Part shown: positions 1-5,073 of the stretch, one piece after another
Position numbering within the stretch: the first letter of the stretch is position 1
Layout of the letters: the number at the start of each line of letters is the position of its first letter
From: a virus
Lineage: Duplodnaviria > Heunggongvirae > Uroviricota > Caudoviricetes
DNA length: 5,073 nt
IMG/VR virus record: IMGVR_UViG_2585427755_000008
Location: 1 to 5,073 of that record
Strand: one strand, 5' to 3'
Translations under genes and position numbers: made by a program
The notes under the pieces: generated by a model
Told to the model about the DNA's origin: nothing
Databases searched by the model: none
Seen by the model: the letters and a program-made list of their open reading frames with translations, nothing else

Positions 1-45
1 ATAAAACCGGGTGATGCAAAAGTAGCCATTTGATTCACAAGGCCA

Positions 46-74
46 TTGACGCATCGCCCGGTTAGTTTTAACCT
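46..74 (+). promoter_or_regulatory. Possible sigma70 promoter for the tRNA-Thr gene (TTGACG -35 at 46-51, 17-nt spacer, TAACCT -10 at 69-74)
   Basis: Seen in sequence: a consensus-like TTGACG hexamer followed 17 nt later by TAACCT, then a GC-rich stretch (TGTCCACCG) about 40 nt upstream of the mature tRNA 5' end. The -10 is weak, so this is motif-based inference only. Confidence 0.2.
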
Positions 75-114
75 TGTCCACCGTGATTCACGTTCGTGAA
101 CATGTCCTTTCAGG

Positions 115-190
115 GCCGATATAGCTCAGTTGGTAGAGCAGCGCATTCGTAATGCGAAGGTCGTAGGTTCGACTCCTATTATCGGCACCA
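115..190 (+). tRNA. thrW: tRNA-Thr, anticodon CGU
   Basis: Cloverleaf folded by hand: acceptor 5' GCCGATA (115-121) pairs with TATCGGC (180-186); D-arm GCTC/AGTTGGTA/GAGC (124-139); anticodon loop TTCGTAA with anticodon CGT at 148-150; T-arm GTAGG/TTCGACT/CCTAT (163-179); discriminator A187; encoded CCA at 188-190. Length 76 nt. It matches my memory of enterobacterial thrW, the attachment site of phage P22. Confidence 0.9.
145..190. other. Probable attL core (tRNA 3' portion shared between host attB and phage attP)
   Basis: Inference: the integrase stop codon is only 15 nt beyond the tRNA 3' end, so the recombination core must lie in the 3' part of the tRNA. From memory, P22 uses a core of about 46 bp running from the anticodon loop to the CCA end of thrW; the exact limits cannot be set without the attR end. 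Confidence 0.4.
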
Positions 191-204
191 TTTAAATCAA
201 TAAG

Positions 205-1368
205 TTACACATCATTAGTACCTTCCTTATTTTTTGACTGGGACAAATTTGGGACCGATGGGTTCAGGATCGAGTCTATTTGCCGTGCGTGTTCGGTAAG
301 GTGATTAGGTGCAAGGTGAGCATATCGACGAACCATTTCGATAGACTCCCAGCCTCCCATTTCCTGTAACACTGACAACGGGACTCCGGCTTGAACCAGC
401 CAACTTGCCCACGTGTGTCTCAAGTCGTGAAATCTGAAATCATCAATACCAGCCCGTCTCAGCGCCGCTTTCCAGGCTGTGTTTGCGTCATACCGCATCT
501 TCCTTACTGTTGGCGCTTTCGTTCCGTCTGGTTTGGTACAGCTTTCCTTGTACACAAATACCCAACGGTGATGATTCCCGATTTGTTTTTTCAAAACGCG
601 ACATGCAGTATCATTCAGCGCAACGCCGATTGCGCGGTTTGATTTACTCTCTTCCGGGTTTATCCATGCCACCCGGCGCTGCATATCTATTTGTTGCCAT
701 TCAAGGTTGATGATGTTCGAGCGTCTTAAGCCTGTTGCCAGTGCAAATTCAACAACAGACTTTAATGGCTCCGGACATTCATCAATCAGCCTTTGTGCTT
801 CATGGGGCTCCAGCCAGCGGATCCGTTTATTCTTTGGTTGAGGCACTTTAATAATTGGTGCCTTATCCAGCATTTTCCATTCACGCTCTGCGGCTCTTAG
901 TAGGGCCTTTATAAATGAAAGATGCGTAGCCTTCGTTGCAACGGACGCTGGTTTTGGCGTGTATTCTGGAACAGGTTTCCCTTTTTTTCTGCATGCTTCT
1001 GCCCTGAGTTTCCAGTTTTCCTCATGACGCCGGTTCGTCATTTTCTGCATTGCTGAATAAATTTTTGATTCAGTAATGTCTCTTAGTTGCATTCCTGCGA
1101 AATGTTGAAGCCAGAATCCGATCCGGCTTTTGTCATCGTCCAGTGATTTTTTATGTGCTTTCTCTTCAAGCCACCTGACACACGCTTCCTCGAACGTTAT
1201 ATCAGGTATTTCACCAAGTTTGCTGACCCGCCATGCTTCAGCCTTTAGCTTGTCATGGAGTTCTGTCGCCTGCCTTTTGTCCTTTGTTCCAAGAGACTGT
1301 TTAAATCTTTTACCGTTCGGCAATGTGAAACTGGCGTACCATATTTCACCTCTGCGGAAGAGTGACAT
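205..1368 (-). CDS. int: Tyrosine site-specific integrase (lambda/P22 Int family), 387 aa
   Basis: ATG at 1368..1366 preceded by GAGGAAAG; TAA stop at 207..205. C-terminal catalytic signature HDLRHTWAS (H-x-x-R) and [15 protein letters not shown] (catalytic Tyr). The N-terminus [46 protein letters not shown] closely matches my memory of P22 Int, and the length agrees (387 aa). Confidence 0.95.
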
Positions 1369-1595
1369 TTTCTTTCCTCTGTTATGCCATCACCCGCGCT
1401 CACCTGGACAGTATGCAGCGGAGACTGAAGAGCCGCAATGCAGGCTTGTCGTGTTGTGAGGTAAGGAGATTTATTCTTAGTGGGATCTTTGCGTGTTGCC
1501 TGAAGACGCCCTGTGCGTATCCAGTTAATGGCAGTCGGTCTGGATATCTTGAGAAAATGACAGGCCTCATCGAGTGTGAGGCTGTATGGCTCCAT
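1245..1595 (-). CDS. xis: Excisionase (Xis, winged-helix/AlpA-like DNA-binding), 116 aa
   Basis: ATG at 1595..1593 with SD GAGGTG 5 nt upstream; the N-terminus [31 protein letters not shown] is a typical excisionase HTH/wing. Its 3' end overlaps the int start by 124 nt in another frame. The longer 144-aa form in the ORF track (from 1679) has no comparable RBS and overlaps the upstream gene. Confidence 0.8.
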
Positions 1596-1900
1596 TATTT
1601 CACCTCTTGCTGTGACATTGTTGAAAAATGGATACCAGCTCGTTGCTGCCAGACGATCCAACCGAGAGTCATATCCCATGCCATGTATTCGTTATCGTCG
1701 TTTTTTGCTCTCCGACGATCTACTAAGTCACCGAAACGCTTTTCCATGAATAATTCATAAGCTTCGCGTTCATCTGGTTCTACTTCCAGAGATAGGAGTG
1801 CGATTTCATAAGCACGGCGCTCAATATCGTCTCGCACGTCAAGGCTGCTGATACGCTCTTTAATTTCTTTAATCAGTTCTTTGTCGGTAAAAGTGGTCAT
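1595..1900 (-). CDS. Hypothetical acidic early-left (ea-region) protein, 101 aa
   Basis: ATG at 1900..1898 preceded by AAGGAG with a 6-nt spacer; TAA stop at 1597..1595 overlaps the xis ATG (TAATG). The protein is highly charged and acidic with predicted helical character. No family recognised. Confidence 0.7.
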   Translation of the reverse strand: MTTFTDKELIKEIKERISSLDVRDDIERRAYEIALLSLEVEPDEREAYELFMEKRFGDLVDRRRAKNDDNEYMAWDMTLGWIVWQQRAGIHFSTMSQQEVK

Positions 1901-1910
1901 GTGTTACTCC

Positions 1911-2174
1911 TTAACCCGCAGTGCTTTCAACTGACGAGGGGAACAAAATCTTTTCATCAAATCCGGCATTCATATCATGGACAGCAACACACCAATCCAT
2001 TGACGAACGATTATCAAGAGCCTCCATGATTTCATCCATGCGGCGTAGGTCATACAGGTAAATATTTTTATCGCCAATGGTGTAAAAACCAATTTTTTTC
2101 GGTGATGGACAGCGATCAATAACGTCCTGTAATTCGTTCAACCATGCCTGTTCTTTTTTTGTCAAAGTTGCCAT
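1911..2174 (-). CDS. Hypothetical phage protein, 87 aa
   Basis: ATG at 2174..2172 preceded by AAGGAAAA. The ORF-track version (117 aa) starts at a TTG at 2264 and would overlap the upstream gene, so I prefer the internal ATG. The TAA stop at 1913..1911 is embedded in the SD of the next gene. No family recognised. Confidence 0.65.
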   Translation of the reverse strand: MATLTKKEQAWLNELQDVIDRCPSPKKIGFYTIGDKNIYLYDLRRMDEIMEALDNRSSMDWCVAVHDMNAGFDEKILFPSSVESTAG

Positions 2175-2175
2175 A

Positions 2176-2394
2176 TCAGTTTTCCTTATACGGATTAATT
2201 TTATTGTGCAGTGTGTTGAACGACGCCCATACCACGTCGTTATACAATTCAATAACTGGCTCAATTATTTTCCCGATTGCCCAGACAAAAATTAGCGGGG
2301 ATATCGGTATCATCAACACGATAAACAGAATGAGAAACAGGAATTCTGTCGTTCTACTCTTTCGCGGATATTCTTTTCTGAATAATGTCGGCAC
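2176..2394 (-). CDS. Small predicted single-pass membrane protein, 72 aa (GTG start)
   Basis: GTG at 2394..2392 preceded by a strong AAGGAG with a 6-nt spacer. Basic N-terminus (RKEYPRKSR) followed by a hydrophobic stretch of about 24 residues (FLFLILFIVLMIPISPLIFVWAIG). TGA stop at 2178..2176 sits 1 nt from the next ATG. A non-ATG start and short length lower the confidence. Confidence 0.55.
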   Translation of the reverse strand: MPTLFRKEYPRKSRTTEFLFLILFIVLMIPISPLIFVWAIGKIIEPVIELYNDVVWASFNTLHNKINPYKEN

Positions 2395-2395
2395 A

Positions 2396-2728
2396 TCACT
2401 CTCCTTTGATGCGAATGCCAGCGACGCGTAGTGCGTGTTCTAAGTCAATCAGGCAAAGCCAACTGCCATTTTCTTTAGGTATCATGACATGTCGCTTATC
2501 AGCATTTATTGGGTGCCCATATCGAAGGTCGTAGCGAGTCGGTAATTGAACTTCCCTCGCTTCCAGTTCTGTAATGCGTTTGTTTTTAGCTTCTAGTTCA
2601 TCCAGCAGCGCCAGCACAACCTGCGGTGTGACTTTCATACGAAATGCCAGCAATTTTTGTGGTGTGGCTACTATTTTTATTGCTTCTGCCGCCTCACGCA
2701 GTGCCTGATAGTTAATTTTGGTTGTCAT
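2396..2728 (-). CDS. Hypothetical ea-region protein, 110 aa (N-terminus reminiscent of Ead/Ea22-like prophage proteins)
   Basis: ATG at 2728..2726 preceded by GAGGTGG and overlapping the upstream stop (ATGA). The N-terminal motif YQALREAAEA...TPQ and the helical segment LDELEAKNKRITELEAREV resemble, from memory only, the N-terminal regions of Ead/Ea22-like proteins; this is unverified. Confidence 0.7.
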   Translation of the reverse strand: MTTKINYQALREAAEAIKIVATPQKLLAFRMKVTPQVVLALLDELEAKNKRITELEAREVQLPTRYDLRYGHPINADKRHVMIPKENGSWLCLIDLEHALRVAGIRIKGE

Positions 2729-3603
2729 GCCACCACCTCTTCGAATTTCAACTCCAATTGATCACCCCAGATTTCACATGACTCTGAACACGAGCCGGTA
2801 TCGAATCGCCTGGCTTGCACCATCGCCTGATACAAATTTCTGTAGTCGCTGTCGGCATACATTCTGGCAATCCCGTCAAGACTCAGATGACCACGGTACA
2901 TAACGTCTTTATCTGTCTTTCGGTGACCATCCCGGACGTGTTTACCTGTAACCAGCTCATTAAAAACTCTCATCAGACCAGGTTCGTCTTTACATGCAAG
3001 CCCCAGCTTTTGCGTGGACTTTTTGATGCAGAAAACACAGTTCCCGAGGTGCTCCGGGATTTGCAAATCAAAAGGTTGTTTATGCCACCACCGGATAACA
3101 TCCGACTTATCAAAATCAGATAGCTCGGCAAGATACCGGACGCCTGATTTCGGTTTCAGCCTACGAGGTTCGTCTGCACGAATACCCAGCCATGTGATGT
3201 AATTCCCTCGTCCGAAATGGTCATCGCAGTATTTTGTGAAGGGGGTGAGTTTTAATCTGTCAGTGCAGAACGCGCCGCCGATGTATGGCGTGCCATATTT
3301 TTTTACCATGTCCATAAACGGTTTAAGCACCGGCATTCGCGTCTGAATATCCTTTGGTTCCCATTCCGTATAACCATTTGGCTGCCCAAGCTCTGGATTT
3401 ATATCGACCTGCAACACAGTTAGCGGTATGCCCCAGAACTTCACAACCTCCCGAATAAAGCGGTATGTCAGCGGATGTTCGCAACCGGTATCCATAAAGA
3501 TGTAGCAGACGTTATTACCAGCCTTTCTTTGTTCTTCCATCAGGTGAACAAGATATGCAGATGTTCTCCCGCCAGAAAAACTAACTACATGAGTTATGCA
3601 CAT
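2725..3603 (-). CDS. PAPS-reductase-like PP-loop ATP pyrophosphatase family protein, 292 aa
   Basis: ATG at 3603..3601 overlaps the end of the upstream HD gene by 10 nt. N-terminal PP-loop-type motif VVSFSGGRTSAYL (SGGxxS variant of SGGxDS) at residues 6-18. Cysteine motifs CVFC (residues 189-192) and CSESC (272-276). The length and motif placement are typical of phage-encoded PAPS reductase / DndC-like proteins. Confidence 0.85.
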   Translation of the reverse strand: MCITHVVSFSGGRTSAYLVHLMEEQRKAGNNVCYIFMDTGCEHPLTYRFIREVVKFWGIPLTVLQVDINPELGQPNGYTEWEPKDIQTRMPVLKPFMDMVKKYGTPYIGGAFCTDRLKLTPFTKYCDDHFGRGNYITWLGIRADEPRRLKPKSGVRYLAELSDFDKSDVIRWWHKQPFDLQIPEHLGNCVFCIKKSTQKLGLACKDEPGLMRVFNELVTGKHVRDGHRKTDKDVMYRGHLSLDGIARMYADSDYRNLYQAMVQARRFDTGSCSESCEIWGDQLELKFEEVVA

Positions 3604-4130
3604 TTGCGTAATTCCGATAACTCGTTGAAGCGTGCCATAAACATCCCGTAGGCATGGCCCGGTGCCAGTGGAATCACGTTGAACATCTCTGTTGCCGGGA
3701 TGCCTTCTAGTACAGGCCAGAAAGAGCCATCATCAAGCCCGAGATCGCGGCGTTCGGTTGCCAGCATGATGAGATCGGCATATTTCACGGGTGTACTCAT
3801 AACCGGGGGTAACCCGTATTTCTCACGGATTACGGCGTCTATTTTTTCTTCCATCCGTTTATAGTCAGGAAGAAGGCGTTTCAGTGGAGCGGGAATATCC
3901 TGGCAATACGCTTCTGTTGCATCATGCATTAACGCTTCAAAAGCAAATTCCTGCGGCACCAGCTGGCTGCAAAGCACCGCATGCTGGGCGACACTGTAGA
4001 AGTGTGAAAGATGTCCTGCAAAGCGACAGATATTTGAAAGGGAAACCGCGATATCGTTAATAACGATGTCGTCTTTATTTATCTTGTCATAATAAAAATG
4101 CTTCCCGGAAAAAGTTTTAATAAATGACAT
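3594..4130 (-). CDS. HD-domain phosphohydrolase, YfbR-like 5'-deoxynucleotidase family, 178 aa
   Basis: ATG at 4130..4128 preceded by GGAG with a 6-nt spacer; the ORF-track start at 4157 is a GTG with no SD. HD signature: an H in HFYSVAQHAV and the HD pair plus downstream D in ALMHDATEAYCQDIPAPLK, which closely parallels the E. coli YfbR segment MYHDASEVLTGDLPTPVK as I remember it. Confidence 0.85.
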   Translation of the reverse strand: MSFIKTFSGKHFYYDKINKDDIVINDIAVSLSNICRFAGHLSHFYSVAQHAVLCSQLVPQEFAFEALMHDATEAYCQDIPAPLKRLLPDYKRMEEKIDAVIREKYGLPPVMSTPVKYADLIMLATERRDLGLDDGSFWPVLEGIPATEMFNVIPLAPGHAYGMFMARFNELSELRKCA

Positions 4131-4223
4131 TTTGTTCTCCACGTATATGCGCTGCACCGCGCTGAATTCTGGTAAAAGGAAGCCCTCACCATCCGGCGAT
4201 TATTGAGTAAATTATGTTTCCAT

Positions 4224-4245
4224 AAATGCCCCCGCAGGGGCATTT
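4224..4245 (-). terminator. Putative intrinsic terminator/attenuator hairpin (9-bp stem, 4-nt loop)
   Basis: Perfect inverted repeat AAATGCCCC-CGCA-GGGGCATTT. On the - strand transcript it lies 12 nt after the DUF2303-like stop (4258) and is followed by AUUUAUGG, a weak U-tract. It sits between two co-directional genes of the early-left operon. Confidence 0.4.
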
Positions 4246-4257
4246 GCAGTAATGAAA

Positions 4258-5073
4258 TCAGGCGGTGAAAGTACCAATAAAGGTTTCTACTTTGCTGTCT
4301 TTAAATTTCTCAACAAGCAGATCACGAAATTCGTTAGCCATTTCTTCCTGCACCGCTTCCAGCTGAATAATGCGCAGAACCAGTACAGGACGATCGCCAG
4401 TGATAATGCTGAGGCGTAATTTAAACGGACGTTCTTTCAGGCCTTCAAACGGAACGCATTTAAATTCAAATGCCACTGGCATAATGTCTTTGGTCTTCGC
4501 TTCGACAGACTCCATCAGGGAGCGTTTGCCGCTGAAGTCATTGTCTTCAAAATCAGCGGTCTGGTTCGCTTCAATTGTGATTTTACGGATCGCCGCAGCC
4601 GCTTTGGTTGCCTGAATGGCGTCACCATTAGCATCAAAGCCCACAAGGTAGTCGGCCCAGTCTTCAATCCATTCTGCCAGTGACTTTTGGGAGTTACGCT
4701 CGCCATTAACAGACAACAGAGCAGAGAACGGTGCTGTCTTTTTCAGTTTGAGAGTGGCGGTGTTATCTGCGTGACCTGGTTCATCAATAGTACCCAGGTT
4801 AAGCACACTGACGGCACGCATATTATCGGCATCGATAAAGCAGCGGGTGCCTTCATCTGCAAGATCTTTAGAATAACGGGTAAAGTCATCGATGCTGGCA
4901 GTGGAAAGCGCACCACGGAAACGGAAGCGATTTAAATTAAATTTTTCCAGATCATGAATGCGGAAATTCTCAGGCAATGCCACAGCATCGGCACCAATCT
5001 TACTGATAATTTCATTAACACCCTGAGCAGAAATAAGGGCATGGATTTGATTAATTGCGGTTGCGTCTAAGTT
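4258..5073 (-). CDS. Conserved prophage protein, possibly DUF2303/YfdQ-like; 5' end lies beyond the window (at least 271 aa)
   Basis: TGA stop at 4260..4258. The reading frame stays open on the - strand all the way to position 5073, upstream of the GTG at 4983 that the ORF track used as a start, so the true start is outside the window. Family assignment is from memory of the size and genomic context of YfdQ-like proteins and is unverified. Confidence 0.7.

Follow-up and report, generated by a model that had tools for sequence, protein, structure and literature searches.

The window, by which we mean the whole 5,073-nt stretch of phage DNA analyzed here, raises the question of what four small genes immediately upstream of an excisionase gene are, how they are expressed, and how they came to stand together. 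A first-pass annotation had placed four open reading frames of 101, 87, 72, and 110 amino acids, each with a Shine-Dalgarno sequence, in a variable accessory stretch just upstream of xis. Their positions and lengths are as claimed, a Shine-Dalgarno sequence is present before all four, and the P22 type of the adjoining xis and int genes is confirmed by comparison with phage ST64T, whose Xis and Int are 87% and 90% identical to the proteins encoded here. All four genes lie on the minus strand and, in their order within the operon, comprise ORF110 (positions 2396 to 2728; 110 aa, ATG start, GAGGTGGTGG upstream), ORF72 (2176 to 2394; 72 aa, GTG start, AAAGGAGAG upstream), ORF87 (1911 to 2174; 87 aa, ATG start, AAGGAAAA upstream), and ORF101 (1595 to 1900; 101 aa, ATG start, Shine-Dalgarno sequence AAGGAG upstream). 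The genome NZ_CP098178 is 100% identical over positions 1595 to 2728, and its RefSeq annotation contains the same four coding sequences, with ORF101 named yfdT.

The next gene downstream in the operon is xis (1245 to 1595, minus strand), which encodes a 116-aa P22-type protein (phrog_2907 excisionase; E value, 1.3e-50) and overlaps by 124 nt a P22-type int gene (205 to 1368, minus strand; 387 aa; PF00589; E value, 3e-48). The prophage attachment site is thrW, a tRNA-Thr (CGT) gene recognized by ARAGORN, Rfam, and genome context (115 to 190, plus strand), which lies downstream of proA. On the other side, directly upstream of ORF110, is a gene for a 292-aa PAPS-reductase-like protein (2725 to 3603, minus strand; phrog_424, E value of 2e-93; PF01507), which also matches the PADLOC model of SspD (1.5e-15); it is preceded by yfdR, of the HD-domain 5'-deoxynucleotidase family (3594 to 4130, minus strand; RefSeq annotation; phrog_318, E value of 3e-111), and by yfdQ (4258 to 5073, minus strand; DUF2303; PF10065, E value of 5e-86; RefSeq), whose 5' end is cut by the window edge. 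In RefSeq, the leftward operon as a whole runs from repressor-proximal genes through yfdP, yfdQ, yfdR, the PAPS-reductase-like gene, ORF110, ORF72, ORF87, and yfdT to xis and int.

The arrangement of the block bears directly on how it is expressed. The start codon of ORF110 overlaps the stop codon of the PAPS-reductase-like gene (ATGA), the gaps between ORF110, ORF72, ORF87, and yfdT are 1, 1, and 10 nt, respectively, and the yfdT stop and the xis ATG share one base. In a simple consensus scan of the whole window, where 7.4 sigma-70-like sites would be expected, a single one appears, on the plus strand, and the minus strand has none. Terminator-like matches near the block are confined to weak stems of 5 to 6 bp within the last part of yfdT and the first part of xis. 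A moron has a promoter and a terminator of its own and is active even when the prophage is repressed; the description of these genes as morons is therefore not supported, and the lack of a promoter-like site and of a convincing terminator makes them translationally coupled members of a long, leftward early-left operon. Judging by gene order and the consensus scan, the genes would be expressed from a PL-type promoter. The four proteins would be made only after derepression or infection, and they would act by protein-protein binding. Rfam and repeat scans of the region returned no RNA gene and no inverted repeat.

Nor are the genes without a nameable family, as had been stated: ORF101 is YfdT, ORF72 is a DUF4014 protein, ORF110 is Ead/Ea22-like, and ORF87 belongs to PHROG 1714 (family HMM E values of 1.5e-25 for DUF4014, 7e-12 for Ead_Ea22, 1.4e-50 for phrog_1714, and 2.5e-30 for phrog_660). 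Judged from their sequences, the four ORFs are real genes, far beyond chance. Ratios of dN/dS of 0.11 to 0.13, computed for three of the four (YfdT, ORF87, and ORF72) against homologues from K-12, ST64T, VT2-Sakai, g341c, and P6, indicate purifying selection on these three. The four proteins contain no recognizable catalytic domain or nucleotide-binding motif, and none of them matches NCBIfam, a PADLOC defense-protein HMM at E values of up to 0.1, or a PDB entry in a sequence search. By their profile matches, they belong to catalogued, largely uncharacterized phage families whose members recur in the "ea" stretch of P22-like phages and, in Stx phages, in the exo-xis region. Since all four fall in such families, the block is an ordinary accessory-cassette mosaic of a lambdoid prophage and not a new system. 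Little here is new: public genomes already contain annotated counterparts, 95 to 100% identical, of all four proteins, and this part of lambdoid phages is well known as the mosaic exo-xis/ea stretch. What is gained is the correct naming of four "unknowns."

YfdT aligns without gaps to K-12 b2363, with 96 of 101 residues identical (95%), is 99% identical to SfV orf28, and is the protein that matches phrog_660; its dN/dS is 0.116. A variable N-terminal module (aa 1 to 32) is followed by a conserved helical core (aa 33 to 88), with the motif ...IALxSLE..PDER.AYELFMEKRFG..VDRRRAKN.D.EYMAWDM.LGW..W..R, and by a short tail ending in QQEVK. Relatives range from 92 to 177 aa and align in a modular fashion, and about one-third of them bear a C-terminal DUF551 domain. 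K-12 YfdS, which we considered and rejected as a relative of ORF110 because the two are unrelated on comparison, shows only a weak relationship to those DUF551 domains that are joined to YfdT-like cores. In multicopy, yfdQ and yfdR together with either yfdS or yfdT suppress over-initiation (Noguchi and Katayama 2016, PMC4776307); in the same study, YfdR bound DnaA and YfdT itself did not, and the evidence on YfdT comes from multicopy plasmids in K-12 (PMC4776307). We picture YfdT as a helical EaA/DUF551-family core minus its DUF551 domain that would serve as a helper of YfdQ and YfdR, encoded in the same operon, and, since YfdR binds domain I of DnaA, the YfdQ/YfdR/YfdT set would damp the initiation of host replication.

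ORF110 is a short member of the Ead/Ea22 family (PF13935; E value of 7e-12; 46.5 bits against a cutoff of 27). Its N-terminal box, MTTKINYQALREAAE, is followed by LLDELE and by a coiled coil of about three to four heptads, counted by eye, at approximately aa 37 to 62, and the C-terminal part is a 48-aa variable domain with the conserved end AGIRIKGE; the two halves of the protein match different phages. A coiled coil extending over half of the protein, as is typical of Ea22, is not found in ORF110, and the absence of the long QQYIKRRDQENEDIALTVGKLRVELE segment marks ORF110 as a truncated Ea22 variant. Searched against PDB chains at E values of up to 10, ORF110 had no match, the C-terminal domain of lambda Ea22 (PDB accession number 8DSX) included. 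Ea22 is tetrameric and, in lambda and Stx phages, pro-lysogenic, and the C-terminal domains of Ea22 proteins vary between phages (PMC7093339, PMC10834534). ORF110 could be viewed as a minimal Ea22, in which an oligomerizing coiled coil would display a small variable C-terminal domain; its effect, taken by analogy from Ea22, would be to tilt the choice between lysis and lysogeny.

ORF72 matches DUF4014 over nearly its full length (PF13198; E value of 1.5e-25; 89.8 bits against 23.2; residues 2 to 72 on model positions 2 to 72), as well as phrog_1832 (E value of 5e-46), and its homologues include VT2-Sakai orf6, 933W L0067, and epsilon15 gp46. The basic N terminus and single transmembrane segment already noted for this protein are borne out by charge distribution and hydropathy: five K/R fall within residues 1 to 17, and a hydrophobic segment at approximately residues 18 to 40 reaches a maximum 19-residue Kyte-Doolittle mean of 2.96, whereas the other three proteins peak below 1.0. 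From hydropathy and the positive-inside rule, ORF72 is predicted to be a bitopic inner-membrane protein, N-in/C-out, and would insert into the inner membrane in that orientation. The family alignment contains an invariant C-terminal motif, LHNKxNPYxE, which is present in ORF72, and the protein most likely binds a host membrane protein via its transmembrane helix and this invariant periplasmic tail.

ORF87 aligns end to end with its family (phrog_1714, E value of 1.4e-50; residues 1 to 87 on profile positions 1 to 87) and is a small, soluble alpha/beta protein in which the motif RCPSPKKIGFYTIGD is conserved and which ends in the tail FPSxVESTAG. Its fold is predicted with confidence, the conserved tail being of lower confidence, and PDB searches by sequence, family profile, and fold gave no match. 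Its homologues are found among P22-like, Chi-like, and other virulent phages infecting Salmonella, Klebsiella, Vibrio, and Aeromonas, and a family-profile search of 1.84 billion representatives recovered 199 members; the few longer ones are without a Pfam domain, so that domain fusions give no clue. A catalytic or metal-binding role for Cys22 was weighed and rejected because distant family members lack this residue. Our literature search found nothing experimental on DUF4014 or PHROG 1714. Retention of the family in temperate and virulent phages of several Gammaproteobacteria suggests that ORF87 is a soluble protein that binds some conserved host target. It is conceivable, though rather unlikely, that ORF87 has an uncharacterized phage protein fold and would bind a conserved host factor through the invariant RCPSPKKIGFYTIGD surface and the FPSxVESTAG tail, e.g., as an inhibitor of a widespread defense or DNA-metabolism protein, maybe together with the DUF4014 protein.

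How these genes came to stand side by side is suggested by their distribution among 5,426 complete E. coli genomes, in which a gene was counted at a coverage of at least 80%. YfdT occurs in 1,599 of these genomes, DUF4014 in 1,020, ORF87 in 973, and ORF110 in 124, and all four genes occur together in just one. Across 79 prophage loci, the neighbors of ORF87 are of 11 kinds on the upstream side and of 18 kinds on the downstream side, and most of the former end in ...KGE and most of the latter begin with MTT(F/I)T...IALASLE; the surroundings of DUF4014 display the same pattern. DUF4014 and ORF87 are adjacent in 31 of the 79 ORF87 loci (about 40%, DUF4014 first) and in 23 of 62 DUF4014 loci, and each is also found alone, which led us to reject them as an obligate pair. 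The order of an Ead/Ea22-like gene, DUF4014, and an EaA/DUF551-like gene recurs in epsilon15, g341c, P6, and VT2-Sakai. Within YfdT itself, the N-terminal module and the core match different phages, and in about 36 genomes all four genes are replaced by a single 114-aa hybrid consisting of an Ea22 N-terminal box and a YfdT core.

The apparent joints of this mosaic are short minus-strand boxes at the ends of genes. That between ORF110 and ORF72 (2396 to 2419) comprises the last seven codons and the stop of ORF110 (encoding GIRIKGE) and holds the ORF72 Shine-Dalgarno sequence, AAAGGAGAG; the (I/V)KGE ending closes most of the Ea22/EaA-type upstream neighbors of ORF87 and DUF4014 and also lambda Ea22. 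The box between ORF72 and ORF87 (2176 to 2196) comprises the last six codons and stop (NPYKEN) and holds the ORF87 Shine-Dalgarno sequence AAGGAA, with NPY.E invariant across the DUF4014 family. At the junction of yfdT and xis (1595 to 1612), the last five codons and stop (QQEVK) hold the xis Shine-Dalgarno sequence GAGGTG, and a PQEVK or QQEVK ending is common to many DUF551/EaA-type relatives. We suggest that cassettes would be joined by recombination at these short conserved gene-end/gene-start boxes, which carry the ribosome-binding site of the next gene; this role is taken from the recurrence of the boxes, whose conservation might reflect nothing more than the ribosome-binding sites within them. 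The boxes are documented here as apparent cassette-swap joints, the hybrid allele that replaces all four genes being an example.

Several other accounts of the block have to be set against this one. We consider it very unlikely that the four ORFs are mere leftovers of prophage recombination, decaying or without function, even though YfdT and ORF110 resemble truncated forms of longer DUF551 and Ea22 proteins, DUF4014 is frameshifted in some STEC prophages, and a K-12 yfdQRST deletion has no phenotype (PMC4776307): three of the four (YfdT, ORF87, and ORF72) are under purifying selection, the reading frames are intact and translationally coupled, intact copies number in the hundreds to thousands, and the genes are carried by the viable phages SfV, SfII, SfIV, ST64T, VT2-Sakai, and epsilon15. 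Exceedingly improbable, in our estimate, is the suggestion that ORF101 acts as an acidic DNA mimic, comparable to Ocr or ArdA, that blocks DNA-binding host proteins. The protein had been called strongly acidic, of which "acidic" stands (pI 4.75; 23 D/E, or 23% of residues) but "strongly" does not, as its net charge is only about -7 and its 16 K/R include the invariant basic patch DRRRAK; ORF87 is equally acidic (pI 4.67). Moreover, ORF101 is YfdT, relatives of which carry DUF551 domains and are sometimes annotated as DNA-binding; it has neither sequence nor family-profile similarity to solved structures in the PDB, DNA mimics included; and its AF2 model is a weak, all-helical bundle (pLDDT of 60).

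A role of ORF72 in the lysogen, as a superinfection-exclusion or surface-modifying membrane protein, e.g., an inhibitor of O-antigen acetyltransferase, would suit its single transmembrane segment and conserved periplasmic tail; some records label the DUF4014 family "sugar acetyltransferase inhibitor," and epsilon15 does encode small membrane inhibitors of O-antigen enzymes, gp22 being its alpha-polymerase inhibitor. The only source of the label, however, is an epsilon15 gp46 annotation that has since been superseded (in a note to the g341c record); in the epsilon15 record as it now stands, gp28 has the role of transacetylase repressor and gp46 bears another label, for which no source is given. 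Literature searches on DUF4014 and on its RefSeq label phrase found nothing, those on "acetyltransferase inhibitor" and the epsilon15 seroconversion genes returned irrelevant papers only, and no paper was found behind either label, both of which are thus misleading and unsupported. Given also that ORF72 is without its own promoter, that lysogens are expected to keep its operon repressed, and that DUF4014 lies in early-right operons in epsilon15 and STEC prophages, we regard such a role as unlikely. Somewhat less remote, though still doubtful, is that at least one of the four, most plausibly ORF87, inhibits host immunity (restriction-modification, BREX, or Ssp/Dnd-type systems). The location in a hypervariable accessory region, the small size and acidity of ORF87 and its retention in temperate and virulent phages of several genera, its confidently predicted but PDB-unmatched fold, a conserved, lower-confidence tail that could be a binding motif, and a PAPS-reductase/SspD-like gene two genes upstream all point in this direction. 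Against it, no characterized anti-defense protein resembles ORF87 by sequence or fold in PDB searches, no linkage to a particular defense system is seen, and YfdT and Ea22 have other published phenotypes. Neither the accessory-gene screen of Silas et al. nor the Phi24B exo-xis paper mentions these families. A DNA-mimic or anti-defense role has no support here, and no evidence of exclusion or toxicity emerged either. As a widespread protein with a confident fold unmatched in the PDB, ORF87 is a reasonable candidate for host-factor and anti-defense screens and the only member of the four worth an experiment.

Overall, the block is probably best explained as a set of genuine, coupled genes of the early-left (PL-type) operon of a lambdoid prophage at thrW, drawn from common exo-xis/ea accessory cassettes. 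The identity of the four genes, the selection on YfdT, ORF87, and ORF72, the operon context, and the mosaic structure are matters of observation; most of what is said of gene function, and every functional step, is inferred.

Compared with lambdoid morons (lambda bor and lom, HK97 gp15), the four genes are likewise small accessory genes, and the G+C content of ORF72 and ORF87 (39 to 41%) is below that of their surroundings, but they are without promoter and terminator signals and are translationally coupled in an operon. ORF110 resembles lambda Ea22 in 44% identity over ORF110 aa 3 to 52 and in the AGIRIKGE at both C termini, shares with Ea22 of lambda and Stx phages the N-terminal box and the LLDE(L/R)E segment that leads into the coiled coil, and, like Ea22, is encoded in the early-left operon upstream of xis. 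It differs in length (110 aa versus 182 aa for lambda Ea22), in retaining about one-quarter of the coiled coil, and in a C-terminal domain to which that of lambda Ea22 has no detectable similarity; with so short a coiled coil and an unrelated C-terminal domain, the pro-lysogenic activity of Ea22 may not transfer to it. ORF72 matches the DUF4014 proteins of Stx phages (94 to 96% identical) and epsilon15 gp46 (51%) over its full 72 aa, and in those phages DUF4014 has similar flanks, with an Ead/Ea22-like gene before it and one of EaA/DUF551 type after it, whereas here ORF87 sits between DUF4014 and the EaA/DUF551-type gene, yfdT. ST64T gp10 (ST64Tp10), which is 60% identical to ORF87, lies in the ea region between Ead-like and EaA/DUF550 genes, and PHROG 1714 is found as well in virulent phages, which lack an ea region.

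A close parallel to YfdT and its surroundings is CPS-53 (KpLE1) of E. coli K-12, in which yfdT likewise comes after yfdQ-yfdR and stands immediately before the excisionase gene (torI in K-12). The yfdT of K-12 is preceded by yfdS (DUF551, 120 aa), whereas here the PAPS-reductase-like gene, ORF110, ORF72, and ORF87 take that place, and CPS-53 is at argW, in contrast to thrW with a P22-type int in this prophage. In the present prophage, which appears to be intact, a single operon encodes YfdT, YfdQ, and YfdR, and this would be a better setting than the cryptic CPS-53 for asking whether the set really shuts down DnaA-dependent initiation as the phage develops.

The four genes between the PAPS-reductase-like gene and xis (window 1595-2728) are genuine, and all belong to catalogued families; one is known by name from K-12 and has been studied functionally to some extent. 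The first-pass annotation identified the region correctly and agrees exactly with ours on the position, length, and Shine-Dalgarno sequences of the four ORFs, which RefSeq annotates as the same four CDSs, but its view that none belongs to a nameable family does not hold. The window opens with the end of proA and tRNA-Thr(CGT) (115-190); all genes after these are on the minus strand: an integrase of the tyrosine type (387 aa, 205-1368), the excisionase (116 aa, 1245-1595), ORF101 or yfdT (101 aa, 1595-1900), ORF87 (87 aa, 1911-2174), ORF72 (72 aa, GTG start, 2176-2394), ORF110 (110 aa, 2396-2728), the PAPS-reductase-like gene (292 aa, 2725-3603), yfdR (3594-4130), and yfdQ (4258 to the window edge). 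The PAPS-reductase-like gene, which sits where K-12 CPS-53 has yfdS, matches the PADLOC SspD model (E value of 1.5e-15) and, weakly, BrxP and DndC; a phage enzyme of the DNA-sulfur-modification type beside accessory cassettes may be of greater interest than the four ORFs themselves. In the complete genome NZ_CP098178, 118 bp of the int/xis overlap region are present as two identical tandem copies (13244-13479 of its locus, L001; compare window 1244-1361). The window lacks this duplication, which in that genome keeps apart the reading frames of int and xis that would otherwise overlap.

Gaps inside the block are 1, 1, and 10 nt, and its ends overlap the neighboring genes (ATGA on the upstream side, TAATG at xis). 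A consensus scan of both strands of the window (1-5073) for sigma-70 promoters detected no such site anywhere on the minus strand and one on the plus strand, versus 7.4 +/- 2.7 expected from shuffles, a depletion that would suit a long operon whose genes are closely packed. Near the block, the only candidates for a terminator are weak stems of 5 to 6 bp, located within the last part of yfdT and the first part of xis; an Rfam search returned the tRNA as its sole match, and no inverted repeats were found. Because of the 1- to 10-nt spacing, the absence of a minus-strand promoter, and the weakness of the stems, we place the four genes in the early-left operon, which means that they are not morons; as long as the prophage is repressed, they would presumably be silent.

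The arrangement is mosaicism of the kind usual in lambdoid phages and offers little that is new. In a survey of 5,426 complete E. coli genomes (counting a gene at ≥80% coverage), YfdT is present in 1,599, DUF4014 (ORF72) in 1,020, ORF87 in 973, and ORF110 in 124 (parts of it in 1,458), and the four occur jointly in a single genome, NZ_CP098178. The CUPF06 genome carries ORF110-ORF72-ORF87 in a prophage located elsewhere, where some other gene takes the fourth place. About 36 complete E. coli genomes share int, xis, PAPS-reductase, yfdR, and yfdQ with the window but have, instead of the entire block, one 114-aa hybrid gene (minus strand, 4595-4939 of locus L002) that joins an N-terminal Ea22 box (MTTEINYHAL...) to the YfdT core and tail. 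Of 79 IMG/VR prophage loci that contain a close ORF87, 31 have DUF4014 as the upstream neighbor and the others have one of about nine different Ea22/EaA-type proteins, nearly all ending in (I/V)KGE; the downstream neighbors form 18 clusters, most of which start MTT(F/I)T and hold IALASLEAEP, with many ending in PEPPQEVK. Similarly, DUF4014 is followed by ORF87 in 23 of 62 loci with downstream sequence and by MTT-IALASLE proteins in about 25, and the order Ead/Ea22-like, DUF4014, EaA/DUF551-like recurs in epsilon15, g341c, P6, and VT2-Sakai. STEC prophages carry the DUF4014-ORF87 pair in the early-right (nin) region. In E. coli 2013C-4361 (L007 4026-4508) and many O26/O103/O111/O121 STEC, the pair lies in a different prophage type, flanked by replication genes and hokD/rusA/Q and with a frameshifted DUF4014.

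The gene ends encoding GIRIKGE, NPYKEN, and QQEVK before the stop codon (window 2396-2419, 2176-2196, and 1595-1612, minus strand) each hold the Shine-Dalgarno sequence of the next gene and recur on many otherwise unrelated neighboring proteins, lambda Ea22 included. We infer that these conserved boxes act as homologous joints for cassette exchange. The G+C content over ORF87 and ORF72 (window 1951-2400) is 39 to 40%, versus 45 to 50% in the flanks, which fits a separate origin of these two cassettes.

That the four genes are decaying remnants is contradicted both by copy-number data and by purifying selection in the three for which dN/dS was computed: 0.116 for YfdT versus K-12, 0.127 for ORF87 versus ST64T, and 0.11 to 0.13 for ORF72 versus VT2-Sakai, g341c, and P6. 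Sequence and profile searches of the PDB gave no match for any of the four proteins. ORF87 matches the PHROG 1714 profile end to end, with no match in Pfam, NCBIfam, or PADLOC, and an exhaustive profile search yields 199 family representatives at 50% identity, nearly all of them stand-alone proteins of 80 to 95 aa (no Pfam domain occurs in the few that are longer). A RCPSPKKIGFYTIGD stretch and FPSxVESTAG at the extreme C terminus are conserved, and the cysteine is missing from distant members. Because the family spans temperate and virulent phages of Salmonella, Klebsiella, Vibrio, and Aeromonas, its distribution points to a conserved host target and not to a lysogeny-specific role. Anti-defense activity, above all of ORF87, is conceivable but finds no support in the present results; ORF87 is the only one worth an experiment. 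ORF72 is a DUF4014 protein over its full length, 94 to 96% identical to VT2-Sakai orf6 and 933W L0067 and 51% identical to epsilon15 gp46. The basic N terminus and single transmembrane segment noted previously are evident (residues ~18 to 40), and it is predicted to be an inner-membrane protein, N-in/C-out, whose conserved periplasmic tail and proline-containing helix would touch a host membrane protein. A role in superinfection exclusion or O-antigen modification comes from database names only, and both names look like labels copied from record to record, since neither could be traced to an experiment. According to the g341c record (gp23, L091 2501-2719), "sugar acetyltransferase inhibitor" goes back to an old annotation, since replaced, of epsilon15 gp46 (L092 8036-8254); the current epsilon15 record gives the transacetylase repressor role to gp28. 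No source was found in the literature for "released from the phage upon host infection," the name now used in RefSeq.

ORF101 is 95% identical to K-12 b2363 (YfdT) and 99% identical to SfV orf28. Aligned with 29 relatives, it divides into an N-terminal module that varies, a core with hardly any variation (residues 33 to 88), and a variable C terminus, which is a DUF551 domain in about one-third of the relatives and a different extension in others; residues 1 to 42 also occur in Stx-phage "EaA," "Ea22," and "DUF551" proteins. The predicted model is all helical and weak (pLDDT of 60). The N-terminal module and the conserved core of yfdT each hold one copy of a 19-nt imperfect direct repeat (window 1754-1772 and 1805-1823, encoding ERRAYE and EREAYE), which may be a remnant of the junction between the modules. 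The suggestion of a DNA mimic came with a description of ORF101 as strongly acidic; acidic it is, but moderately so (pI 4.75, net charge about -7), as is ORF87 equally, and this modest charge, an invariant basic patch, and the identity of the protein as YfdT all contradict mimicry. In K-12, multicopy yfdQ and yfdR with either yfdS or yfdT suppress hda-185 over-initiation and inhibit initiation in wild-type cells, YfdR binds DnaA domain I, YfdT itself does not bind DnaA, and deletion of the cluster has no phenotype (Noguchi and Katayama, PMC4776307). Given these data and the fact that yfdQ, yfdR, and yfdT here share an operon in a prophage that appears intact, the likeliest role of ORF101, proposed tentatively and by analogy, would be that of an accessory factor in the early shutdown of host replication initiation during phage development.

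ORF110, which scores 46.5 bits against PF13935 (cut-off, 27), belongs by sequence to the Ead/Ea22 family, as a short version. The Ea22 proteins of lambda and Stx phages are tetrameric coiled coils with variable C-terminal domains and act in favor of lysogeny (PMC7093339, PMC10834534). ORF110 shares with lambda Ea22 the N-terminal box (44% identity over residues 3 to 52) and the C-terminal AGIRIKGE, but most of the coiled coil is missing and the 48-aa C-terminal domain is unrelated; these two differences weaken the case for an Ea22-like adaptor role, which is plausible by analogy but doubtful.
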